A DNA stretch of 63,998 bases, the filler included, from Candidatus Hydrogenedentota bacterium (lineage in GTDB: Bacteria > JBFMHD01): the NCBI GenBank assembly GCA_040752395.1. It is 10 parts of 10 records of this genome, joined end to end, with 100 filler letters (N's around TTAATTAATTAA, not from the genome) between each part and the next. Parts side by side here need not be neighbours in the genome. Positions count along the whole stretch, not along the records: positions 6,961 to 13,759 come from JBFMHD010000151.1; 9 more parts are not named here. One strand, 5' to 3'. Of the stretch, positions 4,451-60,597 are shown piece by piece. A model generated the notes under the pieces. That model ran no database searches. It was not told the DNA's origin and worked only from the letters and a program-made list of their open reading frames with translations. A program made the translations under genes and the position numbers. Within the stretch, counting starts at the first letter, position 1. Every line of letters starts with the position of its first letter.

Positions 4451-4841
4451 TGCAGAAGCAAAAAGATGGCTTATCCAGGCAAGGGATGAATTTACTGATG
4501 CAGAAGACTTGCGCATTAGAAAAAGATTTTATCTTGCTTTATTCCATTTTCAACAAGCAACCGAAAAGGCAATAAAGGCTTATCTTTATAGTATCGTTCC
4601 TTCGGAAGAAGTATTTTTTACCCACTCTATTTATGAACTTATTCAGATGGCTTGCAAAAAGGATAAAGATTTTAAAAGTGTAACAAAAGCAGCAAAACTT
4701 GATGAATATTATATTCCCACGCGTTATCCCAATGGATTGCCAGGTGGTGTGCCCTCACAGTTCTATAATGACCCAAAAGAGGCAGAAGATGCAATGAATT
4801 TAGCCAGAAAGGTAATCGAACTGATTGAGAAAAAGTTATAA
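4434..4841 (+). CDS. HEPN domain protein
   Basis: FHFQQATEKAIKAYL, THS, LDEYYIPTRYP; overlaps MNT. Confidence 0.9.
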   Translation: MKKEFNAEAKRWLIQARDEFTDAEDLRIRKRFYLALFHFQQATEKAIKAYLYSIVPSEEVFFTHSIYELIQMACKKDKDFKSVTKAAKLDEYYIPTRYPNGLPGGVPSQFYNDPKEAEDAMNLARKVIELIEKKL

Positions 4842-5391: not shown

Positions 5392-5721
5392 ATTACCTCG
5401 ATAATGTGATTGAAATAATATTTTTATCTTTTCTTGTGTCAATTAAATTTTTTGGTATTATTTTATGTTCGAGCATTGAAATTACAAAAAATAAAAAATG
5501 TAGTGAGCATCTTTAGATGCGATAAGCAGGGGTTAAAAGAAACCTGTTCGTAAGGCATAAAGATTCGAAAATTAAAAGATTGAAGTAGGTAGGAGATTGG
5601 AGGTAGAAGGCAGATGGCAGATATAAATTCAAATTGCAAATTGCAATTTGCAATTTAACTTTGTGCTTACTCTGAAAAGTAATGAAGTATCAGACGTTGT
5701 ATAGAGCGTAAACCATGCTCA

Positions 5722-6860: not shown

Positions 6861-6960
6861 NNNNNNNNNNNNNNNNNNNNNNNNNNNNNNNNNNNNNNNN
6901 NNNNTTAATTAATTAANNNNNNNNNNNNNNNNNNNNNNNNNNNNNNNNNNNNNNNNNNNN
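6861..6960. other. artificial contig linker (also 13760, 20530, 27290, 33994, 40663, 47238, 53797, 60342; each 100 nt)
   Basis: N run flanking TTAATTAATTAA (stops in six frames). Confidence 0.98.
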
Positions 6961-7893
6961 AAGAACTTTTTTCTCTTTTAGTTTTTGATAAACCTCTTTT
7001 GCGTTCTTAATCCTTAGTAATAAAAAATTAGAACCAGAATTATATACAAATAAATCCATCTCTTCAAGAGATTTTTTTACCCTCTCCCTCTCTCTGATAA
7101 TCTTCTCTACGTTTTCACTTATATCCATATCCACCGCGATAGAACCAATATATTGAGTGATACGGTTTAAATTATACGAATCCTTTACTGATAAGAGTTC
7201 GTCGATTAACTCGTTATCTCCAAACCCGAACCCAAGTCTTAAACCCGCAAGCGAATGTGATTTCGAAAACGTTCGTAAGACTATAAGATTTCTGTACCTC
7301 TTTATTAAGGGTATAGCTGTTATTTTACAAAATTCAGCATAAGCTTCGTCAACTATTACGAGCCTCTCTTTCCTCGCCTCAAGAATCTCTTTTATCACAT
7401 CAAGGTCCGTTACAATACCTGTGGGCGAATTCGGGGTACAGACAAAAACTATCTTTACACTGCTTTTAATTATATCCCTGTTTATACCTAAATCTCTTGC
7501 AGGTTTAAACTCTATAACCTTTGCATTAAACATCTTCCCAAGTACTTTATAAAGAGTATATGTCGGCACAGAGTAAGCTATTTTATCACCCGGATCAATA
7601 AATGCCTGAAATATCAATCTTAAAATCTCGTCCGAACCTGCACCTGCTATTACATTCTGCCTTTTAATCCCGCATTTTTTAGCTATCTTTGCTCGAAGCT
7701 GCAAGGATAATGGTTCTGGATACTTGTTCAGACTATCAATTACGGATTTATCAAATGCTATATTTACAGAATACGGGTTCTCGTTGGTATTAAGTTTTAC
7801 ATATACCTCATTATATTGTTCCCCGGGTATATAGGCTTTAAAGTTCTTTAAACTCTTTCTATAAAATATACTCATTCTGTCGCTTTGCTCCAT
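6961..7893 (-). CDS. hisC: histidinol-phosphate aminotransferase (3' truncated)
   Basis: KLNTNENPY, GSDE, PNSPTG, DEAY, RTFSKSHSLAGLRLG. Confidence 0.93.
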
Positions 7894-8190
7894 TGCAAAT
7901 TGTAAATTGCAAATTTATTTGCCTCCTTTGGGTCTTGTGCCCCTCACTACGTCATTTTTTTCATTCATTTTGCAATCTCCAATTTCCAATCTTCAATTTT
8001 CAATTGTGCCTCTGTGCCTCTTTCGTTATCTTAATATAACTTCTTTGTGATGGGGTCAATAGAAAAATTCTAAGTTCTGAATAAAGGGAGAACGTATAAA
8101 TCACGAATTTACTCTGGTTAACATAATAAAAAAATTTTTAATAGTAATACTTGACATTTTTATAATTTTATATTAAAAATGTATTTTATT

Positions 8191-8470
8191 AAGGAGTTGT
8201 CCTGAACGCGGTTTGCGCTCTACACTATTGGGTTCTTGGGTTATTGGGTTATTGCGTTTTTGGGTCTTTGCGTTCTACTTTACAGGAAAGGCACAGAGGC
8301 ACAAAGGCACAAAGTATGAAAAACTAAAGATGATATGAAAAGAGTCGTGAGTCAAAACAGGACTCGAGACTCAAGACTCAAGACTTTTCAGCAGGCTTTG
8401 GTCTCCAGCCGGCTGTAGTCCGTAGCCTGTAGCCCGAATTATTAGAGTTACAGCGTTTTTCGAAGGATGG
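8191..8470 (+). repeat. modular heptamer/octamer hairpin repeat, long copy in cpaB leader
   Basis: GCGCTCTACAC; (TTGGGTTA)n; (GGCACAAA)n; TATGAAAAACTAAAGATGATATG; GAGTCGT/GACTCAA hairpin; CAGCCGGCTG hairpin; TTATTAGAGTTACAGCGTTTTTCGAAGGA. Confidence 0.9.
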
Positions 8471-8477
8471 TATATTA

Positions 8478-9578
8478 ATGGAAAGAAAGAAAATTATCTT
8501 TATAGTGGGGATAGTTTCAGTTGTAGTAGCAATACTTGTAGCTGTTCTGATTATTTTTTTGACAGGCGAAGAGGAGCCACCACCTGTCATACCAACAGCA
8601 GTAACTATACCAGAATCACTTCCTCAACAACCGCCACCACCACCAGAAATAGTTGTAGCCTCAAGACCGATACGTGCACATACAATCCTGACTAATGATG
8701 ATATAACAAAAAAAGTTATGCCAAAACCCTGGAAAGAACCGTATATAGAAGACAAGGACAAAGCTATGTTAGTGGGAAGAATTGTTAAAAATGATATAAG
8801 AAAGGGGCAGGCTGTTCTTAATGACTATCTTTATGTCGGCGAAAAATTCGCATATTTAATACCTCCAAACCTGCGCGCAGTACCTATCCCTGTAACTGAA
8901 CAGATTTCTATACTTTATATGATAAATCCAGGTGACAAAGTAGATGTCTTATGCATCTTCCCTCAAACCTATACTGACCAGCTTATGACAAAAATCCTTA
9001 TTCAAGATGCAGATGTTTTATCAGTTGGTAGAAAATACATCCCTGATTTTATGCGTCAAGCTATGCAGTCACAACCCCAACCTTCATCAGCGCCGGCTGA
9101 AGCTCAACCACAGGCACCGCCACCACCACCAACTGAACTTACTTATAACTTTATTGTTCTTGGTGTCTCGCCTGATGAAGCTGAAAAATTAGTATTAGCT
9201 GAAAAGGTTGGTGAGATAAGACTGCTTCTTCGTGGTGAAGGAAGTACATATAAAACATATACCATCGGCGGCTATAAATCTACTGTTGTCAGTAAAGCAT
9301 ATATGGATAATTATATGATGGAAGCCTCGAAAGACAGATTACAGAATATTATTGAGATATATAAAGGTACAGAATTAAAACATAATTTACAACTCCCACC
9401 CGGGAAACAGCGTGACCGTGCAAAGTATGATGCACTTGTAACTGGCGAAGAATTATCTCGATGGGAAAAGATAAAAGAAGCTCAAATGGAAAAAGCAAAG
9501 ATGATGACCGAGCCATCAGGCCAAAAGCTTATGCAGGAAGAAGGCGAGATCCCAACAGAAGGAGAAACTAAAAAATAA
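8478..9578 (+). CDS. cpaB: Flp pilus assembly protein CpaB (SAF plus RcpC)
   Basis: N-terminal TM, IVVASRPI, LRAVPIPV, PGDKVDV, VSPDEAEKLVLA...IRLLLR. Confidence 0.88.
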   Translation: MERKKIIFIVGIVSVVVAILVAVLIIFLTGEEEPPPVIPTAVTIPESLPQQPPPPPEIVVASRPIRAHTILTNDDITKKVMPKPWKEPYIEDKDKAMLVGRIVKNDIRKGQAVLNDYLYVGEKFAYLIPPNLRAVPIPVTEQISILYMINPGDKVDVLCIFPQTYTDQLMTKILIQDADVLSVGRKYIPDFMRQAMQSQPQPSSAPAEAQPQAPPPPPTELTYNFIVLGVSPDEAEKLVLAEKVGEIRLLLRGEGSTYKTYTIGGYKSTVVSKAYMDNYMMEASKDRLQNIIEIYKGTELKHNLQLPPGKQRDRAKYDALVTGEELSRWEKIKEAQMEKAKMMTEPSGQKLMQEEGEIPTEGETKK

Positions 9579-11308
9579 TGAGAACCAGATATAAAATATT
9601 ACTATTATTCATATTCATATTTATAGTTTCGCCTCTTGCTACTATCTATGCTGATGACCAGAAACCAGTAATCTATGTGCCAGTTGGTAATTCACAGGTT
9701 TTATATATACCGAATAAAATAGAACGTATCGCAATAGGTAACCCTGAGATTATTGATGCAGTCGCTGTTACACAGACTGATGTGGTTTTTCGGGGGATAA
9801 ATGTTGGCTGGTCTTTTGTTCATATCTGGGAAAAAGATGGGAACTCTTATACAATAACAGTACATTCCATAGATGTTATGGCTATAAAGCCTTTTCTTAT
9901 AAGCGGTATCTATGCAGATTTTGATATGAATAAAGGTATTATACTTGAGGGCGAGACTGATGATGAAGATGGTTATAAGCGGATGCTAAAAGAGTTAAAA
10001 ATGCAGTTCGGCGATATATTTATAGACAACGTCACAATCTTACCACCACCACCTCCTCCTCCGGCGTTACCTGATACCTTTTTCCTAAGCGATGAAGAAA
10101 AAAATACTATAAACACAGGTGAGTTACAACTTACAACAAAACTAATAAGCGTTATATCGCGTTCCGCAACTGATATGAAAGATGCTGTGACACCATTACT
10201 TTCAACCAATGGTTCTATTACTGTAGATGCAAAGTCCAATACACTCATTGTAAAAGATTTAGAAGAAAACATAGAAACCATAGAAAAATTTGTAAGAGAC
10301 CTTGACCAACCTACATCTTTACAGGTCCTTATTCAGGCTGAATTTGTAGAGGTGATAAAAGACAAGATAGAAGAGTTGGGCATAGATTTCTCTGCTACTT
10401 TCGGTTCCGCAAATACGCTGAGTTTTTCAGTTGGTAATTCATTAAAAACTGTGGTTACACGAGCCGGAGGCGCTACACCCTCAACATCTATCCTCGACGA
10501 CCAGCTCGGAAGCGAAGCACAGATCGATGCTACAAGCAGCAATTTTAACCCGCTTGAACTATCAAACCTTGATTTATATCTAAGAGCACTTGAAAACAAA
10601 GGCTATCTCAGAAAATTATCTTCACCCAAAATTACAGCCCTCAATCAGCAACTGGCAAAAATAGTCAGAACTGATAAAATTCATTATATCTCAGGTTATA
10701 CCTTTACTTATGATTCAAACGGCGCCATTACCGGCGCATACCCTGTAATCTCAAGTGTAGAAATAGGTATCACACTTGAGATTACACCTACCATAGGACG
10801 TGATGACATTATCTCTGTTAAAATAAAACCAATCGCCTCAAATCTGATAGGTGGCGATATAAGAACCATCCAGGCTTCTGCCGCCGGAACTACTTATTCT
10901 ATTCAAGTCCCTGATATGACAACTCGTTCTGCTGAAGCTGAGATACTTGTTAAAAATGGTTATACATTTGTTATTGGCGGTTTGAGAAATTATGAGGAGG
11001 CATTTGCAAGACAGGAGACACCTTATTTATCTAAAATACCTATACTCGGAAACTTATTTAAAAGAAAGAAAGATATAGACGCAAAAACAGAATTATTAAT
11101 CTTTATCACCGCACAGATTATTGACTCGGATGGCATTTATAAATCTACAGGTAATTATGAATATATCCCTCAATCTGAATTAAAATCTATATACCAACAA
11201 AGCGTTACTAATCCTGCGTTGAACCAAAGAGAGGTTGAGGATACTACTCTCCCAAGATTACCCTTAAAAAAAGATTCTGATGTCCCGGTTATCGATTTAA
11301 CCAAATGA
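9578..11308 (+). CDS. secretin (CpaC-like N-terminus, N3-like domain, secretin domain)
   Basis: IERIAIGNPEIID; DAKSNTLIVKD...LDQP..QVLIQAEFVEV; GITLEITP; PYLSKIPILGNLFK; TELLIFIT. Confidence 0.9.
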   Translation: MRTRYKILLLFIFIFIVSPLATIYADDQKPVIYVPVGNSQVLYIPNKIERIAIGNPEIIDAVAVTQTDVVFRGINVGWSFVHIWEKDGNSYTITVHSIDVMAIKPFLISGIYADFDMNKGIILEGETDDEDGYKRMLKELKMQFGDIFIDNVTILPPPPPPPALPDTFFLSDEEKNTINTGELQLTTKLISVISRSATDMKDAVTPLLSTNGSITVDAKSNTLIVKDLEENIETIEKFVRDLDQPTSLQVLIQAEFVEVIKDKIEELGIDFSATFGSANTLSFSVGNSLKTVVTRAGGATPSTSILDDQLGSEAQIDATSSNFNPLELSNLDLYLRALENKGYLRKLSSPKITALNQQLAKIVRTDKIHYISGYTFTYDSNGAITGAYPVISSVEIGITLEITPTIGRDDIISVKIKPIASNLIGGDIRTIQASAAGTTYSIQVPDMTTRSAEAEILVKNGYTFVIGGLRNYEEAFARQETPYLSKIPILGNLFKRKKDIDAKTELLIFITAQIIDSDGIYKSTGNYEYIPQSELKSIYQQSVTNPALNQREVEDTTLPRLPLKKDSDVPVIDLTK

Positions 11309-12294
11309 GCCGAAGCCACATTACCCTCTCATTATTCTTTTTAATATTTTTAAACTCCTGTAACCAGATATTAGTTGAATATACTTTTATGAATAAAGAT
11401 AAAGGATATTTTAAATTAGTTGTTACAAAATCTGTGCCTTATCTCACGCAGAATGAAGAGGCTAATAGAATAAGAAGTGATACAACGTTTTTTAACTCTT
11501 TCTCAGGGCTTAATTTTACTAAACCTCAAACCGCTTTTAGAAATAGAATACTCCACGCTGTATATTATGGCTTGCATAACTGCAATATCAATAATGTATC
11601 CTCTTCTTTATTCCAGGCAAAAGTAAATGTAACAGAAGGTATCAACTCTGATACTCTAATTATTACTTACATAATCCCTGATTCTCTCTCTGCTAAAGAC
11701 CTCCCGGATACTTCTGAAGTATATGTAAATATAATAATCAATATAAATGGTGAATGCCTTGGTTCAAACGGAACAATATCAGGTTCTAAAATTACTTTTA
11801 ATAAAAAATACACCCGCTCAGATATTAATACTCCAGAAAATTTATTTGTATATTATAAACAAAATCAGGAGATCCCGGCTATCTTAGAGACCAACTATAA
11901 AATTATTGAAAGAGATTTATTCTATTTTAGCACTATGCCGTCTGCCGAATCAAAAAAATTATCAATAGAACACCTGCTTAAATCAAAACCAGGTTCCCAA
12001 AAGACAGGATTTTTCCTGAAACCAGAACTTATACAGCATACTACAAAAGAAGAGTTCCTTGAGTTTATTAACAGTGCGATTGTAAAAAAATATTATGGTA
12101 TAAGAAAGATTTATCCTGTGCATTATTTGAATTTCGACTATATCTTAATCAATCTATACAGGGACTGGGATAGACTTCAAATAGAAGAGAAAAAAGAGTT
12201 TATTTCTTTTCTTTCAGCCAATCAGAAGAACGTATTAAAAAATATCCCTGTTTATCTTGTTAACTCTGATGGCAAACGCCTGATAATTCCCTGA
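11305..12294 (+). CDS. hypothetical lipoprotein
   Basis: Hydrophobic stretch ending LNSC (lipobox-like); overlaps secretin stop. Confidence 0.55.
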   Translation: MSRSHITLSLFFLIFLNSCNQILVEYTFMNKDKGYFKLVVTKSVPYLTQNEEANRIRSDTTFFNSFSGLNFTKPQTAFRNRILHAVYYGLHNCNINNVSSSLFQAKVNVTEGINSDTLIITYIIPDSLSAKDLPDTSEVYVNIIININGECLGSNGTISGSKITFNKKYTRSDINTPENLFVYYKQNQEIPAILETNYKIIERDLFYFSTMPSAESKKLSIEHLLKSKPGSQKTGFFLKPELIQHTTKEEFLEFINSAIVKKYYGIRKIYPVHYLNFDYILINLYRDWDRLQIEEKKEFISFLSANQKNVLKNIPVYLVNSDGKRLIIP

Positions 12295-12299
12295 AAACC

Positions 12300-12445
12300 A
12301 TTGCAATAATCATTTTTAATGGTCTTATTTCTCGACTAAATGGATCAAGAACCAATTTTAATGCTTCCAGTGTTACAGCACCCAATAAATTTTCATCCCC
12401 TTTTTCCCCGAATATAGCTGGTGAGGCTCCTCTCTTATTCTGAAA
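12300..12445 (-). pseudogene. C-terminal remnant of a clan AA aspartyl protease
   Basis: GASPAIFGEKGDENLLGAVTLEALKLVLDPFSREIRPL; no start; cut at the repeat at 12446. Confidence 0.7.
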
Positions 12446-12556
12446 CAGGCTTCAGACTCCGGGCTCCAGCCGGCTGGAGTCCATAGCCTGTAGCCTGTAG
12501 CCCGTCCTGATACCTCTCACTTCTTCCGTTATCTTGCTTCTTGCCTCTTGCTTCTA
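12446..12556 (+). repeat. modular repeat, CAGCCGGCTG hairpin plus pyrimidine module
   Basis: CTCCAGCCGGCTGGAG palindrome, (TAGCCTG)n, CTGATACCTCTCACTTCTTCCGTTATCTTGCTTCTTGC. Confidence 0.9.
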
Positions 12557-12663
12557 AAGTATAAGTTCTACTGCACCAATAACTGAGGCATTACCAATCT
12601 TCTGTCTCCTGTCTCCTTAAATTATAGTACCTTTTTCCTATTGACTCTGTGAGAAAATTCATC

Positions 12664-12691
12664 TTGACAAACTGCAGAAATGGCTTATAAT
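12664..12691 (+). promoter_or_regulatory. sigma70-type promoter upstream of the repeat and tadE-like gene
   Basis: TTGACA-N16-TATAAT. Confidence 0.65.
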
Positions 12692-12714
12692 AGTTATAAT
12701 GATGAAAAAAGTAT

Positions 12715-12993
12715 GAAGTGGGAAGTAGGAATAAGGAGTTTTTGGGTTATTGCGTTTTTGCGCTCTACACAATTTATAAAAAACTAAAGATGATATGAAA
12801 AGAGTCGTGAGTCGCAAGTCGTGAGTCAAAACAGGACTCAAGACTCAAGACTTTTCAGCAGGCTCCGGGCTTCGGGCTCCAGCCGGCTGTAGTCCGTAGC
12901 CTGTAGCCCGTCCTAATACCTCTCACTTCTTCCGTTATCTTGCTTCTTGCTTCTACTTGATATTATTATAGTTACAATGTTTTTCAGAGGAGG
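12715..12993 (+). repeat. modular repeat, long copy ending in the SD of the tadE-like gene
   Basis: Most modules present; ends GTTTTTCAGAGGAGG 8 nt before ATG 13002. Confidence 0.92.
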
Positions 12994-13001
12994 TACTTCA
13001 T

Positions 13002-13759
13002 ATGTTTAACTTATTAAAATTAATAAGAAATCAGAAAGGCCAATCAATCGTCGAGACTGCATATCTGCTCCCTTTGTTAATCGCTGTTATTTATGCAGGC
13101 CTCGAGGTCGCAAATATATACAATAACTGGACTTCTTTTAGAAATGCTGCAAGAACAGGCTGCGCCATCTTAAGCCGCGGCGGCTCTGATACAGAAATAA
13201 AAGATGCTATCTATGAAAATGTAGGAAAAATAATACGATGGGGGTTTGTAGAGTTTCAAGCCGGTAATATCGAGATATTCCCGGCGTACGGTGATCCGGA
13301 TAGAACAATTACTGGTAAACCCGTAGGGGTTCGGATTGAATATAAAGTCGGTTTTAATCTCCCGCTTTTTGCTAATTATGTTGAGCTTGCTGATATGAGT
13401 GTGGGTAATATAAGAAAAGTAAATATGCGTTCTTTAAATGATACTGAAGACGAGTTCTCTGATGCGGGCCATTTGATACCCATCGTTATAAAACAACAGA
13501 CTTTTAAGCGTGGCCAGAGTTATTTAGTAAGAGATGAAGGAGCAACAGGTAACTGGGGTGGTATGAACCTTGATAATGAAGCAGGTGCAGCTGGTGCTAA
13601 TGATATAAGAGATTGGATAACAAATGGCTATCCTGGTGATATAGCTGTTGGTGATATAAGAAATACCCAACCCGGATTTATGAAGGGACCTGTTTTAGAC
13701 GGTATTTTAAGCCGCATATGGGAACATATTACTGAGACCTGGTCCGACCATCCAGTTGA
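13002..13759 (+). CDS. TadE/TadG-like pseudopilin (3' truncated)
   Basis: Prepilin motif KGQSIVETAYLLPLL; AARTG; C-terminal GNWGGMNL...WITNGYPG. Confidence 0.8.
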
Positions 13760-13875
13760 NNNNNNNNNNNNNNNNNNNNNNNNNNNNNNNNNNNNNNNNN
13801 NNNTTAATTAATTAANNNNNNNNNNNNNNNNNNNNNNNNNNNNNNNNNNNNNNNNNNNNTAGCAGTGATAAAACA

Positions 13876-15369
13876 ATGATGATAAAAGATTCAAAGATTG
13901 AAAGATTCAAAGATTACTTCCGAATTCCGAATTTTTTAAAGGAAGTTGGTTTTAGGCTACAGGCTACAGGCTACGGATTACAGCCAGCTGGAACCCGGAG
14001 CCTGAAGTCCGAAGTCCGAAGCCAACATATCATCTACTTTTTGCCTTTTGCTTCTTGCTTCTTGCTTCTTGCTTCTTACTTCTTACTTCCTACTTCTTCT
14101 TATTGCCGCATCACCGATGATCTTCGGCTTGGTGCTTATCCAGCGAGTATGGGTGGTGCATTTGTTGCTATGAGTGAGGGGTATCATTCTCTTTACTGGA
14201 ACCCTGCGGGTCTTTCTAAATTTCAAGGGTTGGATATCTCGGATCTTTTTATACCGCAGCCGTACGGAGTCGATGATATCAACCAGAACTATCTCGCGGT
14301 CGCTTATGGTGACAGTATCCGTCGGTTCGGTGCTGGGCTGGCGATGCGGTATCTTGGGGCTGATTTAGAATATGGTTCAGCAGGTGGTAGTATTATCAGT
14401 AGTGTTGATTATGATGAATTTGAATGGATTGTAGGTGGTGGTGTACGGGTTATGACAGACTGGTATGTCGGAATGAATTATAAACATTATTCTATAGAAT
14501 CGAGTCTTCGCGGAACCGAGTTAAGTATTTCGGGTAATGCGATGGATATAGGTACAATTTACTATGTAAGGCCACTTGATTTGAATTTAGGTGCGATGAT
14601 AAGAAATTTTTCTTGTGATTTCGGGAAAGAAGATATTGATCCCACGTATCGAATTGGTTTAAGCAAATCTTTTATTGATAATCATATCAGGTTTGCGATT
14701 GATGTATCTGAAGAAAACGACGCCGCTCTTAATGATGCTGATTTCAGGTTGCACGCAGGCTGTGAGTTTTTACCTGTTAAAGAATTTGGTATAAGAATCG
14801 GGTATGACGACGAAGATATCACAGGTGGTTTTGGGGTCTATTTTGGTAGTGCGGGGCTGGAATACGCATACGTTGATAATGATAGACTCGAAGGAACTCA
14901 TCAGGTCTCTTTATCCTACAGGTTTGGGAAACCTAAATCAGTCAAAGAATTAGAAAAAGAAGCTGAGAAACGAAAAGCTAAAATTGCTGAAAAAGAAGAA
15001 GAAAAACAGCCTGTTATGCAAAAAGTAAAAAAAGAGGAGGTTGTTCTGGCTAATGATTATTCAATCTGGATTGAAAACTTTAGGGGGATTGATGTGCCGG
15101 ATGAAGTAAAATGGCTTGAGATGGCTATAAAAGACATTATGATAAATTATTTCAAAAGAGAGACTGATCTCACTCTCGCCAACTCCCCCAATAAAGCATA
15201 TTTTATTATATCTGGAACATATAAAAAAACCAATGATCAAATATCGATATATGCAAGGATTACAGATAAATCAGAAAGAATAAAAATAGAGACTGTTCTT
15301 ACATCCCAGCAAAAAATATTTAATGGTTGTGAACAATTAGCTGAAAAAATAATAAGAAGTATAAAATAA
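13876..15369 (+). CDS. PorV/FadL-like outer-membrane beta-barrel protein with C-terminal extension; N-terminus encoded by repeat DNA
   Basis: GAYPASMGGAFVA...SLYWNPAGL; RIGY; GFG; EYAY; THQVSLSYRFG. Confidence 0.8.
   Translation: MMIKDSKIERFKDYFRIPNFLKEVGFRLQATGYGLQPAGTRSLKSEVRSQHIIYFLPFASCFLLLASYFLLPTSSYCRITDDLRLGAYPASMGGAFVAMSEGYHSLYWNPAGLSKFQGLDISDLFIPQPYGVDDINQNYLAVAYGDSIRRFGAGLAMRYLGADLEYGSAGGSIISSVDYDEFEWIVGGGVRVMTDWYVGMNYKHYSIESSLRGTELSISGNAMDIGTIYYVRPLDLNLGAMIRNFSCDFGKEDIDPTYRIGLSKSFIDNHIRFAIDVSEENDAALNDADFRLHAGCEFLPVKEFGIRIGYDDEDITGGFGVYFGSAGLEYAYVDNDRLEGTHQVSLSYRFGKPKSVKELEKEAEKRKAKIAEKEEEKQPVMQKVKKEEVVLANDYSIWIENFRGIDVPDEVKWLEMAIKDIMINYFKRETDLTLANSPNKAYFIISGTYKKTNDQISIYARITDKSERIKIETVLTSQQKIFNGCEQLAEKIIRSIK
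13953..14100 (-). repeat. modular repeat in reverse orientation inside the CDS
   Basis: (AGGCTAC)n, CAGCCAGCTG, CCAACATATCATCT, (TTCTTGC)n. Confidence 0.9.
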
Positions 15370-15386
15370 TCATTTCCGCGGTATAA

Positions 15387-15482
15387 CTATATAAACAAAA
15401 ATCTTACGGGAATAAGACGTTTTTTTATCGGGTCTAAAGCCAGGCCAAGTTCTTCCAGAACAACCATTCCTAATAGAAGACT
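15387..15482 (-). pseudogene. second clan AA aspartyl protease C-terminal remnant
   Basis: LLLGMVVLEELGLALDPIKKRLIPVRFLFI*. Confidence 0.6.
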
Positions 15483-15507
15483 GAGGTGATACAGTAACCA
15501 GCGGTCG

Positions 15508-16683
15508 TTAATCTGGTATAGTGGTAAACTTATCATATAACTCATATAACGGGATATTGAGTTCTTTTGCTCTCTTTCTCATATCCTCATATTCAGGAAA
15601 TTCTTTTGTAGCACCTGAAGGAAGAAGGACTCGCTTAAATTTTATATCCCCTATCTCTGTTTTTTTTGTTACGATCTCGCGCTGTAAACTTAGTTTTTGT
15701 ACCGGGTAATATCTTACGCCTATGGTTGTAGTTACTGATAGAAGATATTCTATAAGGCCATAAAGCTTCTCATCAGTTGAAAGGAGTGAGATTATAAAAG
15801 CGGGTCTTGATTTTTTCATCATTGTATTCGTAATGCAAACATCAAGGGCGCCTCTATTAAAAAGCCCCTCCATAATATCAGGTAAAAGCTGCGGATTCAT
15901 ATCATCAATATTTGTTTCAATAATAAACTGTGTTTGCTGGTTAATTATCTTATCATCAATTATTCCCAGGGTAATCCTTAACACATTAGGAAACTCAAAT
16001 TTTTTTGTACCAGCTCCATAACCAGTTGCTACAGGTATATAAAGAGGTGGCTGTTCATAGATATCTGTAATAGAAGCTACAATAGCGGCACCTGTTGGCG
16101 TTATGATCTCTTCAAAAATATTCTGATAAGATACTGGTTTTCCTTTAACGAGTTCTAAAACTGCGGGTGTAGGAAGCGGTAGAATACCGTGGTCAGTCTT
16201 AACCATTCCGCCTGTCTCAAGATAAAAAGGTGTGCTATAAATTCTTTGTGGTTTAATTTTATGAATCGAGGCTGCAGCACAAACAATATCCACTATGGCG
16301 TCAACTGTTCCAACCTCATGAAAATCCGCTTTATTAAAAGGTATGTTATGTACCGATGATTCGGCAATCGCAAAATTTTCAAATATTTTTATAGCAAGAT
16401 TTTTTATAGGAGTATCTATCAAAGCATTATTAATTATCTTTTTTATATCATCAAAATTTCTGTGTATGTGTTCTTTTTTTTGGTTTTTAACATTGAATCT
16501 TAAGGCAGAGATACCATTATAAACAACATCTTCCAACTCAATAGAGACACTATTTAAGCCGAGTGATTTTACAATAGAATCAAGATAAGCTTTATCTTTA
16601 TGCAGTCCAAATAGAGCAGCGTTTATCTTATCACCTGATACACCTGAAAACTGGTCAATAAAAAGTATATTATAAGCGCTCAA
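15508..16683 (-). CDS. larC: nickel-pincer cofactor biosynthesis protein LarC (DUF111)
   Basis: SGVSGD, FHEVGTVDAIVDIV, HGILPLPTPA, TPTGAA, GYGAG, ETNIDDMNP, MKKSRP, TTTIGVR, PEYED. Confidence 0.92.
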   Translation of the reverse strand: MSAYNILFIDQFSGVSGDKINAALFGLHKDKAYLDSIVKSLGLNSVSIELEDVVYNGISALRFNVKNQKKEHIHRNFDDIKKIINNALIDTPIKNLAIKIFENFAIAESSVHNIPFNKADFHEVGTVDAIVDIVCAAASIHKIKPQRIYSTPFYLETGGMVKTDHGILPLPTPAVLELVKGKPVSYQNIFEEIITPTGAAIVASITDIYEQPPLYIPVATGYGAGTKKFEFPNVLRITLGIIDDKIINQQTQFIIETNIDDMNPQLLPDIMEGLFNRGALDVCITNTMMKKSRPAFIISLLSTDEKLYGLIEYLLSVTTTIGVRYYPVQKLSLQREIVTKKTEIGDIKFKRVLLPSGATKEFPEYEDMRKRAKELNIPLYELYDKFTTIPD

Positions 16684-16693
16684 CTGTTATATA

Positions 16694-16880
16694 CTCCTCT
16701 GAAAAACATTGTAACTCTAATAATTCGGGGTACAGGCTACAGGCTACGGACTACAGCCGGCTGGAGCCTGGGACACGGAGCCCACATATCATTTACTTCT
16801 TGCTTCTTGCCTCGGCCGACTACAATGTGCTCCTACGAACATCTCTCTCACTTTTAGCTTTTAACTTTTTACTTTTTACT
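16694..16880 (-). repeat. modular repeat ending in the SD of larC
   Basis: Reverse complement reads CAGCCGGCTGTAGTCCGTAGCCTG...TTATTAGAGTTACAATGTTTTTCAGAGGAG. Confidence 0.88.
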
Positions 16881-16890
16881 TGTTATACAC

Positions 16891-17865
16891 CTATAACCGA
16901 GTGCTAACTCTAAGAGACTTAAATACCTCCTTTTTTAATATCGGGAGTCCTAAACCATAGACCCTGTCAGCACCTTTCTTCCCTATGTCAAGTGTTAGCC
17001 TCTTTAGATGTTCGTATGCTTCGTCAATGTTGGTGAGCGGTGTTTTACCACCGTAGATTTGATGTTTGGCTATGGCAAGACTAAGAACACCTGCTATATG
17101 CGGCGTGGCCATTGAGGTACCTGAAAATGAGGCATATCTATTTTCTGGTATAGTTGATAAAATTTCAAAACCAGGTGCTACAACCCCCATTTTTTTCATA
17201 CCTTCTCCTGTGGTGCTAAATTCAGTTATTTTTTTATTTGAAGCGATAGCTCCAACAGCTATGCAGAGTTTCTCTTCAGCATAACGTGCAGGATATCCTA
17301 ACTCGCTCCAGTTCCCCTGGTTCCCCACTGCACAGACTGTTATAACCCCATTTTTCTTTGCCTCTATCAGTGCCTGCTTTAAACTTAAAAAGGGTTCAGG
17401 AGACCCAAGCGACATTGAAATTACCTTAATGTCATATTTTTTAATGTTCTCTATTACCCAGTAAATCCCATTCACTATCCAACTTATATCGCCCTCCCCA
17501 TAATCATTCATTACCTTTACTGGTATAATCTTTGTTTTTGGCGCAACACCAATGATGCCAAGCCCATTTTTATTAGCTGCTATGATACCTGTGACATGAG
17601 TACCATGTGACTGATGGTCATTTATATTATTTCTATTTTTTGAACTAAAATTTATGCCGATGATTTTATTCTTTTTAAATATAAAAGATTCTTTTAAATC
17701 CTTATGATAAGGCGAGGTTCCTGTATCAAGAACCGCTACTTTCACTCCCTGCCCCTGGCAAAGTTTCCAGATATCAGGAGCTCCCAATAGTCTAACGCCC
17801 CAGTCAATGGTCTCGGAAACTTTTCTTTTTATGAAAATTTGTTTATATGGAATAAGTTTAAACAT
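16891..17865 (-). CDS. S8 subtilisin-like serine peptidase, no obvious signal peptide
   Basis: VAVLDTG, HGTHVTG, GTSMATPH triad motifs. Confidence 0.93.
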   Translation of the reverse strand: MFKLIPYKQIFIKRKVSETIDWGVRLLGAPDIWKLCQGQGVKVAVLDTGTSPYHKDLKESFIFKKNKIIGINFSSKNRNNINDHQSHGTHVTGIIAANKNGLGIIGVAPKTKIIPVKVMNDYGEGDISWIVNGIYWVIENIKKYDIKVISMSLGSPEPFLSLKQALIEAKKNGVITVCAVGNQGNWSELGYPARYAEEKLCIAVGAIASNKKITEFSTTGEGMKKMGVVAPGFEILSTIPENRYASFSGTSMATPHIAGVLSLAIAKHQIYGGKTPLTNIDEAYEHLKRLTLDIGKKGADRVYGLGLPILKKEVFKSLRVSTRL

Positions 17866-17896
17866 AAATAAATTTTATCCTGGATAACATAAATCC

Positions 17897-19729
17897 CTAT
17901 TCTACAGTAACGCTTTTTGCGAGGTTGCGGGGCTGGTCTACCGGACAGTTGCGTAAAACTGCTGTGTAATATGCAAGAAGTTGTAACGGAATAACTGATA
18001 GTACAGGAATAAGCATAGGATGTATATCAGGGATATATATTACCTCTTCAGCTTTGCTCGATAGTTGAGTATCACCCTCTGTACCGATAGCTATAACTTT
18101 ACCCTTTCTTGAAACTACCTCTTCTATATTCGACCATATTTTATCATAAACCGCATCTTTTGTAGCTATAATCACAACAGGCATATTTTCATCTATTAAA
18201 GCTATGGGTCCGTGTTTCATTTCAGCTGCTGGATAACCTTCAGCATGGATGTAAGATATTTCTTTCATTTTAAGTGCGCCCTCTAAAGCTACTGGAAAAT
18301 TTACTCCGCGACCAAGATATAGAAAGTTATTAGCATTTTTAAATTTGCAAGCGATGCGTTTTATCTCCTCGGCTTTATTAAGAATATCTTTAATTTTATC
18401 AGGTAATGATAGTAACGCGTTAATAATCTCTTTGCCCTGATTTATACTCATAACCCTTGCTCTTGCAAACATAAGTGTCATAACAGCGAGCGCGCAAATC
18501 TGGGAGGTAAACGCTTTGGTTGATGCAACACCTATCTCGGGCCCCGCGTGGATATAAACGCCGCCATCAGACTCACGTGCTATAGTACTACCAACAACGT
18601 TACATATCCCGAGAACACGTGCACCTCTGGATTTAGCTTCACGTAATGCTGCTAAGGTATCAGCTGTCTCGCCTGACTGACTTATGCAGAAAACAATGGT
18701 ATCTTCAGGTATTAAAGGGTTTCTATATCTAAATTCAGATGCATACTCTACTTCAACAGGGATACGGGCGTATTCTTCAAGCATACATTCACCAACCATG
18801 GCTGCATGCCAGGATGTCCCACAAGCAACAAATATTATCCTCTTTATTTTATGTATAGCATCTTTATCCATATTTAAACCATTTAGCCTGCCATCGCCCT
18901 CTTTTGGTTTTAACCTGCCTCTATAAGCATCCTGTATGGTTAATGGTTGTTCGAAGATCTCTTTTAACATAAAATGGTCATAACCACATTTTTCTATCTG
19001 TTCTATACTCCATGTTACTTCCTGCACTTCTTTTAATACTTCTTCTTTAAATAATGTGGTTATTCTGTAATCAGTTGGTGTAATAATAGCCATTTCTTTA
19101 TCATCAAGATAGATGACCTGTTTAGTATGAGTTATGATGGAAACAACATCACTTGCAATAAACATCTCCTTTTCACCGATACCTAAAATAAGCGGGCTGC
19201 CATTACGTACAGCTACTATTTTATTATTTTCTTTAATACTTAAGATTGCCAGTCCATAAGCGCCCTCAACCAGGGCAAGCGCCTTTGCCACGGCATCCTC
19301 GAGCACGCCATTATAATATTTTTCTATCAAATGAGCTATAACCTCAGTGTCGGTCTGAGATTTAAATTTGTGTCCCTCTTTTTCAAGTATCTCTTTTAAC
19401 GCACGATAATTCTCGATTATTCCGTTATGAACAACAAATATCTCATTCTTACAATCAGAATGAGGATGCGCATTAATCTCTGTTGGTTCGCCGTGTGTCG
19501 CCCAACGCGTATGCGCGATACCACAGGTGTATTTGTTTTTTATTAATGGATGACATTTTTTTTCTAATTCTTTAACTTTGCCGGAAATTTTTACAGTCGT
19601 CTGATTATCCTTTTTATCAAGTACAGTCAGACCCGCAGAATCATAACCCCGGTACTCCATCCTCTTTAAACCATCAATTAATATATCAATAACTAATTTG
19701 TTACCGATATAACCTATAATACCGCACAT
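17897..19729 (-). CDS. glmS: glutamine--fructose-6-phosphate transaminase
   Basis: MCGI, EYRGYDSAG, HTRWATHG, SQSGETADT, PRNLAKSVTVE. Confidence 0.98.
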   Translation of the reverse strand: MCGIIGYIGNKLVIDILIDGLKRMEYRGYDSAGLTVLDKKDNQTTVKISGKVKELEKKCHPLIKNKYTCGIAHTRWATHGEPTEINAHPHSDCKNEIFVVHNGIIENYRALKEILEKEGHKFKSQTDTEVIAHLIEKYYNGVLEDAVAKALALVEGAYGLAILSIKENNKIVAVRNGSPLILGIGEKEMFIASDVVSIITHTKQVIYLDDKEMAIITPTDYRITTLFKEEVLKEVQEVTWSIEQIEKCGYDHFMLKEIFEQPLTIQDAYRGRLKPKEGDGRLNGLNMDKDAIHKIKRIIFVACGTSWHAAMVGECMLEEYARIPVEVEYASEFRYRNPLIPEDTIVFCISQSGETADTLAALREAKSRGARVLGICNVVGSTIARESDGGVYIHAGPEIGVASTKAFTSQICALAVMTLMFARARVMSINQGKEIINALLSLPDKIKDILNKAEEIKRIACKFKNANNFLYLGRGVNFPVALEGALKMKEISYIHAEGYPAAEMKHGPIALIDENMPVVIIATKDAVYDKIWSNIEEVVSRKGKVIAIGTEGDTQLSSKAEEVIYIPDIHPMLIPVLSVIPLQLLAYYTAVLRNCPVDQPRNLAKSVTVE

Positions 19730-19735
19730 AGAACG

Positions 19736-19905
19736 CTCCTACGAAAAGTCTTGAGTCTTGAGTCGTCAGTCTTCTTTTGATTCTCGACTCTTTGACTTGT
19801 AGACTTATCTTAGACTAACGACTGTTTTCATATCATCTCCTCTACGCTTTTCCGTCTCTTGCCTCTTACTTCTTTCGTTATCTTGCCTCTACATATCATC
19901 TTCTA
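19736..19905 (-). repeat. diverged modular repeat ending in the SD of glmS
   Basis: Reverse complement GATGATATG...GCAAGATAACG...GACTCAAGACTCAAGACTTTTCGTAGGAG-CGTTCT-ATG. Confidence 0.8.
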
Positions 19906-20037
19906 CGAAGTAAAACTATACTATAATATATTATACTAAACTTCAAGAAAAAATTATCGTATTTGTAATGCCGTATTTTTTCACACGTTCTGAGGGAATA
20001 CTTTTTTATGAATTTTTATCTTGTATTTTCTGCTTAA

Positions 20038-20184
20038 CTATAGTAAATTAATATTTTTATAATAATTTCCTTCGTATACTATAATTTCATCACCAGATTG
20101 GGCTTCAGATATAGCTTTTTTTATCGTCAAAAACGCCTGGTCAAAGTCTTTTGGCTCAATTACTGAAACTGAACACTTAAACAT
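20038..20184 (-). pseudogene. 48-aa fragment resembling the N-terminus of parallel beta-helix proteins
   Basis: AFLTIKKAISEAQSGDEIIVYEGNYYKNINL. Confidence 0.45.
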
Positions 20185-20210
20185 TTTTCTTATCCTTCAA
20201 TAAAAAATTC

Positions 20211-20369
20211 ATAATTAAGGATTTAAAAAAGAACCAGAAGATCAGCAGACAGGAGTTGAAAAAAGTCATAGGTGGAAACATCGGGACTTACCTTAGTGGG
20301 ACCCTGGGCGGCATAAAGAATCCTGCTCCTGAGAGAGGGATTATTATAACAGTACCTGATCCGACATAA
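20211..20369 (+). pseudogene. double-glycine-leader-like peptide lacking a canonical start
   Basis: IIKDLKKNQKISRQELKKVIGG-NIGTYLSGTLGGIKNPAPERGIIITVPDPT*; hairpin follows at about 20387-20414. Confidence 0.45.
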
Positions 20370-20630
20370 AAAGAATGTGACTCTCCTGTCGGCTGCCTGG
20401 CACAGCAACCGACACTTGTTTTTGATTATCGTACCTGCCTTCGACTTAAGACGATGACCATCTTCTCCAAGTTATCGATGGTAACCTGATTTAGGCAGGA
20501 CATTCGGCACTATCACTGCCCGCAACAGTNNNNNNNNNNNNNNNNNNNNNNNNNNNNNNNNNNNNNNNNNNNNTTAATTAATTAANNNNNNNNNNNNNNN
20601 NNNNNNNNNNNNNNNNNNNNNNNNNNNNNG

Positions 20631-20807
20631 CTAAAATGTGCTGAAAAAATCGAAGCAGGTGGCGTCTTAATAAATGAGATACCCACTTTCAGGGTCGATA
20701 ATATGCCGTATGGCGGCACAAAGGGTAGCGGGCTTGGCAGAGAAGGACCAGAATTCGCTATAAAAGAGATGACTGAAGAAAAACTCATCATCTTTGACCA
20801 GATTTAA
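20631..20807 (+). CDS. aldehyde dehydrogenase, C-terminal end (5' truncated)
   Basis: [33 protein letters not shown]. Confidence 0.9.
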
Positions 20808-20809
20808 CC

Positions 20810-20997
20810 TCTCTCTTCTTACTTATTACTTTTTCATAGGAGTCGTCATAAGCGCGGTTTGCACTCTACACAATATATGAAAAACTAAAGATGATATGTT
20901 GGCTTCAGGCTCCGGGCTTCGGACTCCAGCCGGCTGTAGTCCGTAGCCCGTAGCCTGTACCCCGAATTATTAGAGTTACAGCGTTTTTCGAAGGAGT
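20810..20997 (+). repeat. modular repeat copy
   Basis: GCACTCTACAC, TATGAAAAACTAAAGATGATATG, CAGCCGGCTG hairpin, TTATTAGAGTTACAGCGTTTTTCGAAGGAG. Confidence 0.9.
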
Positions 20998-21016
20998 CGT
21001 TAGATATTACTACTTT

Positions 21017-27231: not shown

Positions 27232-27289
27232 TCTCCTATGAAAAGTCTTGAGTCTTAAGTCCTGTTTTGACTCACGACTTGCGACTTGT
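27232..27289 (-). repeat. modular repeat (GAGTC/GACTC hairpin) at contig end
   Basis: Reverse complement CAAGTCGTGAGTCAAAACAGGACTTAAGACTCAAGACTTTTCATAGGAG. Confidence 0.85.
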
Positions 27290-27593: not shown

Positions 27594-27804
27594 ATAAATA
27601 TATTCTCTAAAAAAGTCATTTTCAAGTGTTCTATACATCTTTGTGCCTCTGTTCCTTTGTCACTTTGTGCTTTACGAACAGTTTTTTTTCAGAGACCTTA
27701 TATAATTATATTGACAATGAATTGTTTTTGCAATATTTAAAGGGCGATAGGTTTTCGGTGGTCGGTTCACCGATAACCTAAAACCCAAAACCTATAACCG
27801 AATA

Positions 27805-28013
27805 TCTTGCTTCTTGCTTCTACTTGATATCATTAGAGTTACAATGTTTTTCGAAGGAGTACTCATGAGCGCGTTTGCGCTCTACACGAGGTATGAAAAA
27901 CTAAAGATGATATGTTGGCTTCGGGCTCCGGGCTTCGGGCCCCAGCCGGCTGTAGTCCGTAGCCTGTAGCCTGTACCCCGAATTATTAGAGTTGCGAAGT
28001 TTTTATGAGGAGG
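27805..28013 (+). repeat. composite repeat with two end-modules, ending in the SD of rlmB
   Basis: TTGCTTCTACTTGATAT...CGAAGGAG then GAGCGCGTTTGCGCTC, D and F modules, ...GAGGAGG. Confidence 0.9.
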
Positions 28014-28018
28014 TTTGA

Positions 28019-28735: not shown

Positions 28736-28769
28736 GGACACATCCCATATTTCAAGTTATTTCTTCAGA

Positions 28770-30781: not shown

Positions 30782-30790
30782 ACCAGCACT

Positions 30791-30990
30791 TTGCTTCTTG
30801 CTTCTACTTGATATTATTATAGTTACAATGTTTTTCGAAGGAGTCAACATGAGCGCGTTTGCGCTCTACACTATTGGGTTCTTGGGTTCTTGCGTTATTG
30901 CGCTCTACACAAAGGATGAAAAACTAAAGATGATCCGTAGCCTGTAGCCTGTACCCCGAATTATTAGAGTTACAGCGTTTTTCAGAGGAG
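30791..30990 (+). repeat. composite repeat between ppx and ppk1, ending in the SD of ppk1
   Basis: Same layout as 27805; ends GTTTTTCAGAGGAG 7 nt before ATG. Confidence 0.92.
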
Positions 30991-46846: not shown

Positions 46847-46954
46847 ACTACAGGGTATAATATATTTTTTATTTATGATATCTTCAATATATTTTATTTT
46901 TATTCTTGATTTTTTATTTAAGATATGATAGAAGCATTTTTCGATAAAAAACTA

Positions 46955-47174
46955 TAGATGATATGAAAAGAGTCGTGAGTCGTGAGTTAAACAGGACTCA
47001 AGACTCAAGACTTTTCAGCAGGTTCCGGGCTTTTGGATCCAGCTGGCTGTAGGCCGTAGGCTGTAGCCTGTCCTGATACTTCTCACTTCTTACTTCTTAC
47101 TTTTTCCGTTATCTTGCCTCTTGCTTCTTGCTTCTACTTGATATTATTATAGTTACAATGTTTTTCAGAGGAGG
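46955..47174 (+). repeat. modular repeat ending in the SD of leuB
   Basis: GATGATATG, E, F and G modules; ...GTTTTTCAGAGGAGG 7 nt before ATG. Confidence 0.92.
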
Positions 47175-54377: not shown

Positions 54378-54477
54378 ACCCCCTCTGCTGAAAAACTTTG
54401 TGACTATAATAATATCTAATAGAGGCAAGAAGCAAGAAGCAAGATAACGAAAAAAGTAAGAAGTGAGAGGTATCAGA
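54378..54477 (-). repeat. modular repeat end-module between two M50 genes
   Basis: Reverse complement CTGATACCTCTCACTTC...TTGCTTC...GATATTATTATAGTCACAAAGTTTTTCAGCAGAGG. Confidence 0.85.
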
Positions 54478-54506
54478 AAAAGGAAGTTCATTATCTTACT
54501 TCTAAT

Positions 54507-60441: not shown

Positions 60442-60597
60442 TCAAGACTTTTCAGCAGGCTACGGGCTTTTGGCTCCAGCCGGCCGCAGGCCGTAGCCTG
60501 TAGCCTGTCCTGATACCTCTCACTTCTTCCGTTATCTTGCTTCTTGCTTCTTGCTTCTACTTGATATTATTAGAGTTACAATGTTTTTCAGAGGAGA
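60442..60597 (+). repeat. modular repeat starting at contig edge
   Basis: E tail, F hairpin, G module, GTTTTTCAGAGGAG. Confidence 0.9.

Follow-up and report, generated by a model that had tools for sequence, protein, structure and literature searches.

A mosaic hairpin repeat ending in a Shine-Dalgarno-like sequence occupies the leaders of unrelated genes in a Candidatus Hydrogenedentota bacterium

The leader of a tadE-like gene of Candidatus Hydrogenedentota appears to be filled by a set of short repeats and hairpins that recurs, in varying combinations, ahead of other genes within the same 63,998-base stretch of DNA (hereafter the window). The last bases of the set resemble a Shine-Dalgarno (SD) sequence. 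We take the segment 12715-13004 to be one copy of a dispersed mosaic repeat lying between promoter and start codon, a reading that goes together with the SD-linked spread discussed below and that, in this joint form, we hold with slightly more confidence than doubt. The copy is made up of the following parts, the last line being the gene itself (ORF, open reading frame).

12708..12738, plus strand: purine-rich arm of 7-nt GAAGTGG-like units with AGGAG at its end (inverted repeats I3 and I5, 75% complementary)
12739..12767, plus strand: array of 8-nt units (TTGGGTTA/TTGCGTTT) followed by GCGCTCTA, a remnant of the small hairpin H0 (families D11 and D12)
12768..12797, plus strand: M2 module, ...AAAAACTAAAGATGATATG, ending in ATGATATG (family D10, 6 copies)
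12798..12857, plus strand: M3 hairpin, with a (GAGTCGT)n arm, a loop and a (GACTCAA)n arm, closed by GAAAAG/CTTTTC (I2, I4, I6 and I7; family D15)
12858..12910, plus strand: M4 hairpin, with a (GGCTYCG)n arm, a CCAGCCGGCTG centre and a (GTAGCCY)n arm (I1; 10-copy alignment, 19-pair consensus helix)
12911..12954, plus strand: M5, pyrimidine-rich 7-nt array (CTTGCTT)n (family D3, 12 copies; lag-7 arrays)
12955..12992, plus strand: T1 terminal module ACTTGATATTATTATAGTTACAATGTTTTTCAGAGGAG, whose last 5 nt (12988-12992) are the putative SD; conservation is about zero past 12992
13002..13759, plus strand: tadE-like gene (Pfam TadE, E = 2.6e-8), ORF truncated by the contig end at 13759

A TTGACA-N16-TATAAT sequence at 12664-12691 (plus strand) ends 17 nt ahead of the repeat. 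It matches the consensus at 12 of 12 positions and is the best site in a scan of 7800-21100, in agreement with the promoter that the initial annotation had placed just upstream of position 12715. The same scan returned promoter-like sites with 10 of 12 matches at 8138 and 8151, upstream of the copy that precedes cpaB, and no site inside the terminal (T) modules. Upstream of the copy preceding rlmB, a TTGACA-N17-TATTTA sequence was spotted by eye.

The assembly is fragmented, and the window strings together about 10 of its contigs, sorted by size; the contigs recorded for the window's HisRS and GlmS proteins measure 6860 and 6670 nt, exactly the lengths of the first and third pieces. The pieces (6860, 6799, 6670, 6660, 6604, 6569, 6475, 6459 and 6445 nt, in descending order) are parted by nine 100-nt spacers, each composed of N44, TTAATTAATTAA and N44, at 6861-6960, 13760-13859, 20530-20629, 27290-27389, 33994-34093, 40663-40762, 47238-47337, 53797-53896 and 60342-60441; the repeat family D1 returned by the repeat search of the window consists of these spacers only. 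Since the contigs are joined, gene neighbourhoods across spacers are not real. The tadE-like gene and two others discussed below ('leuB' and M50-like) are truncated at contig ends. A further 100-N gap, at 24160-24259, lies between two identical 127-nt stretches (24033-24159 and 24260-24386, family D14) and looks like an unclosed scaffold overlap.

The conserved 3′ module of the repeat ends in ...GTTTTTCRRAGGAG. With up to 3 mismatches allowed, the 21-nt pattern TTACARYGTTTTTCRRAGGAG matches the window 9 times, whereas 100 shuffled sequences gave 0.04 matches on average and never more than 1. A wider search, for TTTTC(A/G)N1-2AGGAG in repeat context, gave 11 SD-ending termini. These are listed below with the distance between the last base of AGGAG and the start codon; T2 denotes a second terminal form, found directly after M4.

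8189..8468, plus strand: cpaB copy (H0, 8-nt arrays, M2, M3, M4, T2); start 8478, 9 nt, SD reading AAGGAT
12708..12992, plus strand: tadE-like copy described above; start 13002, 9 nt
16694..16886, minus strand: larC copy (purine arrays, internal GTTCGTAGGAG, ATGATATG, M4, T2); start 16683 (TTG), 10 nt
19736..19905, minus strand: glmS leader, composed of CGTAGAAG, a ATGATATG unit, CGTAGAGGAG, ATGATATG-M3 hairpin-TTTT and CGTAGGAG, then 6 nt and the ATG; start 19729
20806..20996, plus strand: SGNH/AlgX-like copy (Y-array, TTTTCATAGGAG, H0, M2, M4, T2); start 21017, 20 nt
27233..27289, minus strand: M3 hairpin end TTTTCATAGGAG before a 53-aa ORF, copy truncated by the contig end; start 27225, 7 nt
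27760..28012, plus strand: composite M5-T1 / TACTC ATG-H0-M2-M4-T2 before the SpoU/rlmB-like gene; start 28019, 6 nt
30785..30990, plus strand: ppk1 copy, composite as at 27760 with the left arm of M4 deleted, filling the ppx-ppk1 intergenic region; start 30998, 7 nt
46936..47173, plus strand: M2-M3-M4-M5-T1 before the 18-codon 'leuB' fragment; start 47182, 8 nt
54382..54478, minus strand: M5 and a degenerate T1 (TTTTTCAGCAGAGGGGG) before an M50-like ORF; start 54365, 13-16 nt from the degenerate AGAGGGGG
60442..60596, plus strand: orphan copy (M3 end, M4, M5, T1) beginning at the contig edge; followed by about 121 nt free of gene starts, with a TTGCAA-N17-TATAAT resembling a promoter downstream of it

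At 10 of the 11 termini a co-oriented start codon thus lies 6-20 nt past AGGAG (6-10 nt at 8 of the 11), and all ten gene-linked termini are on the strand of their gene. For an intergenic position and strand drawn at random, the probability of being favourable is p = 0.033, which gives P(≥10/11) = 1.8e-14; the gene list behind this null model held one wrongly guessed start (14117), and p barely changed. In an alignment anchored on AGGAG, the information per column is high up to the last G and about zero beyond, every spacer being different. Conservation ends so sharply after AGGAG that the 3′ boundary of the repeat is the SD itself. Pfam supports the assignments RcpC/CpaB, TadE, Ni_insertion (LarC), SIS and GATase (GlmS), SpoU methylase and PP_kinase. 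The M50 match falls under the Pfam cut-off (25.4 against 27.2 bits), the 53-aa ORF matched no Pfam family, and the name 'leuB' relies on 18 codons ahead of a contig end, too short for a Pfam scan. Position, strand, the AGGAG boundary and the promoter ahead of at least the 12715 copy lend good support to the view that the repeat is a portable 5′ leader whose last bases are the SD for the gene that follows.

These results uphold the initial annotation's description of an element ending in TTTTC(A/G)..AGGAG shortly before start codons, including the two cases that it had judged weaker, cpaB and the M50-like gene. All the genes that it named do carry such an end near their start, but the leaders of glmS and the 53-aa ORF do not terminate in the 30-nt T module: there the M3 hairpin itself ends in TTTTC(G/A)TAGGAG. 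Both exceptions that it gave also stand, the start at 21017 being 20 nt away and the copy ending just before 60597 serving no gene.

Genes preceded by the repeat differ from the other genes of the window in the strength of their SD. An SD core within 21 nt of the start is present in 9 of 10 element-linked genes as against 13 of 39 others. The median energy of the duplex with the anti-SD is -9.35 kcal/mol in the first group and -2.9 kcal/mol in the second (Mann-Whitney p = 8.5e-5), as computed with an assumed generic anti-SD tail that may not be the host's and with longest-ORF guesses for the comparison starts. That 26 of the 39 genes without the repeat lack an SD core within 21 nt of their predicted start fits a lineage poor in SDs within the FCB group, to which NCBI assigns Candidatus Hydrogenedentota. 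AGGAG is 3.4-fold denser in intergenic DNA (33 in 8.8 kb) than in coding DNA (61 in 54.3 kb). Of the 33 intergenic occurrences, about 19 were judged by manual reading to lie inside repeat modules, so that the repeat accounts for about half of the strong SDs in the sample. About 20% of the sampled gene starts are preceded by it.

In structure, the repeat is a hairpin-module mosaic. Individual copies omit, repeat or shorten modules, and module order is variable. The imperfect-palindrome units M3 and M4 are combined as mosaics in the manner of the REP, BIME and REPIN elements. Counted by lag, 25 tandem arrays have a lag of 7 and 6 have a lag of 8, with 0-3 for any other lag between 3 and 12. The main period is therefore 7 nt and not the 8 nt put forward earlier; all 25 lag-7 arrays are intergenic. 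ATGATATG stands at the 5′ edge of hairpin units, with 9 occurrences in repeat context. Recombinant forms of the two termini exist: the larC terminus has a T2 head with ACAATG, and the termini at 27859 and 60596 are T1 with TTAGAG. [quoted passage not shown] The tadE copy has a sub-terminal pair, 75% complementary, of purine and pyrimidine arms, with T1 outside it. A conserved upstream ORF starting from the internal AGGAG-N5-ATG was considered and discarded, as the triplet is ATG in two of four window copies and CTG or ATA in the others.

Copies are 85-93% identical across the T module and its neighbours. For T2, conservation is 0.88 in the T module and 0.89 in the preceding 30 nt; for T1 the corresponding values are 0.93 and 0.85. 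They do not support stronger constraint on the T module than on its neighbours. A terminal module no better conserved than adjoining DNA fits young copies better than a selected site.

Two further copies have no SD-ending terminus in the window.

12439..12556, plus strand: partial copy, M4 and M5 without a T module, 3′ of the gene at 11305-12294 and upstream of the 12664 promoter (families D2, D3 and D7)
13946..14100, minus strand: purine array, ATGATATG and M4, pointing to the contig start; the gene served would be off the contig

The second of these overlaps an ORF at 13876-15369 (plus strand), the first 70 or so codons of which (13876-14150) translate repeat modules, leaving its true start uncertain. 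The (CTTGCTT)n array reads there as hydrophobic LLLASYFLL before the conserved part of the protein and might encode a segment resembling a signal peptide. Two other shared leader modules were noticed. One, GTAGTGAGGnnCACAAGACCCnnAG(G/C)AGG, has an SD-like end and occurs at 7894-7960 and 45923-45975 (both minus strand), upstream of an aminotransferase gene (7893) and a RecD2-like gene (45922). The other, TTTCACACGTTC(A/T)GAGG(A/G), also SD-like at its end, is found at 25340-25375 (minus strand), upstream of a STAS-PilZ gene (25319), and at 19955-19990 (plus strand).

Folding of the tadE leader gave -97.7 kcal/mol for the sense strand (z = -4.3) versus -79.4 for the opposite strand (z = -2.8). 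In the minimum free energy structure the purine arm at 12708-12738 is predicted to pair with the M5 pyrimidine array at 12911-12954, forming an outer helix that encloses M3 and M4 and leaves T1 outside. Of 11 copies, 8 fold more stably as the sense strand, with a clear margin (13-21 kcal/mol) in 2 of them. The 19-pair M4 helix, aligned over 10 copies, contains a single covarying pair, and its alignment cells include 11 G-U versus 7 A-C; on these figures selection at the RNA level is not shown. The hairpins may have a role at the RNA level. The mean probability of the SD being unpaired is 0.27 in nine native leaders versus 0.28 in shuffled ones, 21 of 40 shuffle sets lying at or below the observed value. 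SD accessibility thus gives no sign of designed masking or exposure, and masking by the anti-SD-like pyrimidine arrays, as in a riboregulator or RNA thermometer, is not supported. Rfam 15 has no match to the repeat: at E ≤ 1 the interval 12400-13050 returned only a chance microRNA hairpin (E = 0.53), and within the window only 6S RNA attains its gathering score (6S/SsrS, 59407-59607, minus strand, 70.9 bits, full length).

Outside the window, the T motif was scanned for in genome contigs. Among the matches listed, which represent at least four loci, only one is a true copy; it lies at the start of a 2.2-kb contig (locus L003, genome G001), where a T module is followed by 9 nt and the ATG of a 24-codon ORF. 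The other three listed loci (Paenibacillus, Ruminococcaceae and Oscillospiraceae) are at chance level, about 4 being expected in 596 Gb. Genome G001 yielded no other copy, no DNA like window positions 27390-33993 and no ppk1, so that the contig carrying L003 looks foreign to that bin. The element was found in none of 40 relatives of G001 and in none of 24 other genomes of its phylum. Two patterns searched for in Joint Genome Institute metagenome contigs gave no match, and neither did two in viral contigs. Three 'hypothetical proteins' of 48-105 aa (P0241-P0243), annotated at NCBI in a Candidatus Hydrogenedentota metagenome-assembled genome (MAG), are translated M5-T1-H0-M2-M4 copies and likely to be spurious gene calls. 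Contigs often break inside repeat modules; together with the three translations from the MAG, this indicates that the family is abundant in this lineage. Window proteins were without close relatives among 5.8 billion proteins, the identities being 65% for GlmS and 46-47% for HisRS.

Each copy that is whole at its 3′ side closes with a U-rich tract and AGGAG, taken to act as the SD of the gene downstream. Beyond the positions, strand, sharp 3′ boundary, modular anatomy and upstream promoter, which are observed, we infer that the family spreads as DNA. It would move by transposition or by copy-and-paste recombination into leaders, at or beside an existing SD. Because the unit would carry or regenerate an SD at its 3′ end, the recipient gene would retain a ribosome-binding site (RBS) at the correct spacing, and the insertion would be tolerated; in a genome poor in SDs, it may even raise translation. 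The hairpins would ride along as a compact folded block of the 5′ untranslated region and might affect mRNA stability or processing. Such SD-associated spread of a mosaic leader repeat, with regeneration of the SD, is the explanation that we favour, at odds a little better than even. A bolder form of it is doubtful, and we offer it tentatively: a mobile family would home to the SD, insert strand-specifically right after AGGAG and bring with it a U-rich enhancer and a new AGGAG, and would in this way have installed canonical SD initiation on about one fifth of the sampled genes of an FCB-group lineage with few SDs.

Several features are consistent with SD-associated spread. AGGAG-like sequence stands on the left of the units in about seven of eight junctions read (8192, 12734, 20838, 27855, 30839, 16830 and 19837). 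The glmS leader contains a threefold CGTAG(R)GAG (CGTAGAAG, CGTAGAGGAG and CGTAGGAG), of which only the gene-proximal copy is intact, suggesting the pattern that two successive insertions at one SD would leave. Finally, the genes served are functionally unrelated according to Pfam, among them genes for pilus components, LarC, GlmS, an rRNA methylase and Ppk1.

A number of observations weigh against SD-associated spread. The AGGAGT reported earlier ahead of the copies at 8192, 20838, 27855 and 30839 is present in all four, but those at 27855 and 30839 are not independent insertions: a T1-TCAAC-ATG-H0 junction with an identical spacer occurs in ppk1, P0241 and P0242, and the recurrence of the same junction spacer marks the two as copies of one composite rather than separate events. 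The left AGGAG could also belong to the unit, H0 units reading AGGAG-N5-ATG like a miniature gene start. A longer flanking direct repeat was seen only once (AGGAGTCGT at 20838/20992). SD spacing is broken, not preserved, at the SGNH gene, with its gap of 20 nt, and at the aminotransferase gene (7893) an (AAATTGC)n array separates AAAGGAGG from the ATG by 28 nt. The T1 copy ending at 60596 serves no gene, and the M4 and M5 copy at 12439 has no T module. Among 52 window ORFs scanned there is no transposase, no member of the Y1 family and no RAYT, and the window offers no empty site or polymorphism. The assumptions behind the duplex energies count here as well, and it is from position alone that the repeat end is given its putative SD role.

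Besides insertion at RBSs, the initial annotation had proposed domestication of the element as a control shared by unrelated genes. On this proposal, the T module or the arrays and hairpins would bind one trans-acting protein or small RNA (an S1-like, cold-shock protein-like or CsrA-like factor, for instance), selection would retain the repeat, and the factor would co-regulate many genes in their translation or mRNA stability. Unrelated genes do share, ahead of their starts, a nearly identical 30-nt T module that overlaps the SD, and the better folding of the sense strand in 8 of 11 copies points the same way. Heptamer repeats upstream of start codons have, moreover, been proposed as sites for post-transcriptional regulators in Beggiatoaceae (PMC4679880) and likewise in Nostoc (bioRxiv 10.1101/2022.06.06.494920). 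However, the genes served have no common function, conservation of the T module does not exceed that of the repeat DNA adjoining it, and the SD is just as accessible in shuffled leaders. One covarying pair in 19 in M4, a module content that varies among copies and the lack of an Rfam family argue in the same direction; a domesticated leader is thus unlikely, and the evidence leans to insertion. An origin without transposition, by growth of the 7-nt units through replication slippage and homogenisation of modules through recombination or gene conversion seeded on AGGAG and the U-tract, would account for the strong and exclusively intergenic 7-nt periodicity (25 of 25 arrays), for array lengths that differ among copies, for the mosaic T1/T2 recombinants, for the loss of one hairpin arm in the ppk1 copy and for type-2 units that have no terminal inverted repeats. 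Slippage leaves unexplained, however, composites of 150-280 nt with the same module order at unrelated loci; conversion requires prior homology at each locus; and a sharp common 3′ boundary is more typical of the end of an element. We regard this origin as improbable.

Less is to be said for a portable expression cassette, in which the T module would have its own promoter as well as the SD and the upstream hairpins would lie outside the mRNA. T1 contains, by manual reading, a TTGCTT-N18-TATTAT with 8 of 12 matches, and no separate promoter was noticed where copies lie between co-directional genes (larC, ppk1, SGNH and M50-like). Yet the scan of 7800-21100 flagged nothing in the T modules while finding the perfect site just upstream of the tadE copy; a -35-like hexamer is missing from T2, and the clear promoters of this organism are canonical TTGACA/TATAAT. 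Such a cassette is highly unlikely. An assembly artefact, with a short-read assembler joining unrelated flanks through the shared repeat and so creating chimeric repeat-gene junctions, would be in keeping with the fragmentation of the assembly, with contigs that often stop inside the repeat and with the one scaffold gap between identical 127-nt flanks (D14). Against this, T module, unique 6-10-nt spacer and start codon together span about 40 nt and differ in each of ten copies, the independent record L003 has the same arrangement, and three more copies appear in another public annotation. It is barely credible that the arrangement arose in this manner.

The window has some further features. 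An ORF with a FecR domain (60718-61770) contains a 21-nt tandem repeat, present 7-9 times at 61372-61562 (plus strand), that encodes a proline/glycine-rich PPPGGMQ-like stretch. Two segments are duplicated, one of 194 nt (3708-3901 and 5266-5459, 95% identical) and one of 42 nt (3659-3700 and 4931-4972, 100% identical), their second copies falling within a GNAT ORF at 4846-5442. An adjacent gene pair at 4085-4841 (plus strand), nucleotidyltransferase (Polbeta/NTP_transf_2) and HEPN, shows the usual toxin-antitoxin-like arrangement.

Among the signals known to be provided by repeats scattered through bacterial genomes are promoters, terminators, RNase sites and protein-binding sites. The cyanobacterial STRR sequences are contiguous heptamer repeat arrays. 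IS200/IS605-type elements, with their miniature hairpin-bearing forms, have sub-terminal imperfect hairpins and no terminal inverted repeats and insert strand-specifically 3′ of a short fixed sequence without duplicating it. Insertion of this type would fit units that always follow AGGAG, and is put forward as a hypothesis by analogy; unlike in IS200/IS605, no Y1 transposase was found here (52 ORFs), and AGGAG is not known as a target. The Correia elements of Neisseria (CREE/NEMIS) have 26-bp terminal inverted repeats, duplicate TA and insert in either orientation; in 5′ leaders they create promoters, as well as RNase III sites in the transcript hairpin, and so alter expression. They resemble the present repeat as small repeats of 5′ leaders, but what they supply is a promoter and not an SD. 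Mycobacterial MIRUs are simple 46-53-bp tandem units inside operons, with small coupling ORFs. Like the repeat described here they are intergenic and oriented with the translation of the flanking genes, whose stop and start signals they overlap, but they are not hairpin mosaics that end in an SD. REP and BIME sequences are mosaics of a few imperfect palindromes in high copy number, and transcribed copies affect mRNA stability or attenuation. They are mostly located 3′ of genes or between the genes of operons, in either orientation, have no SD and are tied to RAYT transposases. The present repeat breaks this location rule, with 10 of its 11 SD-ending termini 6-20 nt before co-oriented starts and no RAYT in the window, and shares with BIME, REP and REPIN the mosaic of imperfect-palindrome motifs (background sections of PMC3049150). 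The pneumococcal BOX element, as described by Croucher et al. (2011, PMC3049150), has a modular A-B(n)-C structure, is transcribed as an adduct 5′ or 3′ of operons and exerts module-dependent effects downstream; good SD sequences are noted there to be missing from the ORFs that it creates. BOX and the present repeat both vary in how many internal modules they contain, but BOX differs by its inverted-repeat-like ends and by the lack of a fixed distance to the start codon.

The nearest published description that we found is that of the TAACTGA repeats (MacGregor 2015, PMC4679880), direct repeats of a heptamer that occur in marine Beggiatoaceae and also in some Cyanobacteria and Bacteroidetes. 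According to that article, only about one quarter of the genes have an SD in the Beggiatoaceae genome, about 10% of the repeat-bearing regions also have one, the arrays usually replace the SD, and a translational role is proposed, not shown. The likeness lies in intergenic tandem 7-nt units, mostly facing a start codon close by, ahead of unrelated genes and in a genome poor in SDs. TAACTGA is one heptamer in short simple arrays over the RBS position, whereas here many heptamers serve as hairpin arms, non-periodic modules are present and the end is a canonical AGGAG. Heptamer repeats of Nostoc PCC 7120 lie within about 100 nt of starts or promoters, and results with deletion constructs suggest that they influence expression (bioRxiv 10.1101/2022.06.06.494920). 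These and the STRR arrays share with our repeat contiguous heptamers close to start codons; lineage and sequences are different, and no conserved SD-bearing terminal module is described there. Ribosome binding, RBS, translation initiation and Shine were not matched by a term search of a 2024 review of prokaryotic miniature inverted-repeat transposable elements (PMC10969869). A limited literature search on repeats combined with Shine-Dalgarno or ribosome-binding site, covering titles and abstracts of the papers listed, likewise returned no repeat that ends in an SD. A broader query, too wide to count as a negative, had nothing on repeats of Hydrogenedentota among its top 12 of 21,701 papers.

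The repeat thus joins properties of mosaic hairpin repeats with those of heptamer arrays at start codons, and has a fair chance of being a mobile element that homes to the SD and regenerates it. In practical terms, its copies break up the assembly and appear as hypothetical proteins in the annotation of a public MAG. A repeat bounded by an SD and preceding about 20% of the starts in an SD-poor genome would be a natural 'portable RBS' and would represent a new route by which translation-initiation signals spread and are exchanged. The finding also bears on the role of the heptamer arrays found at start codons in Beggiatoaceae and cyanobacteria.

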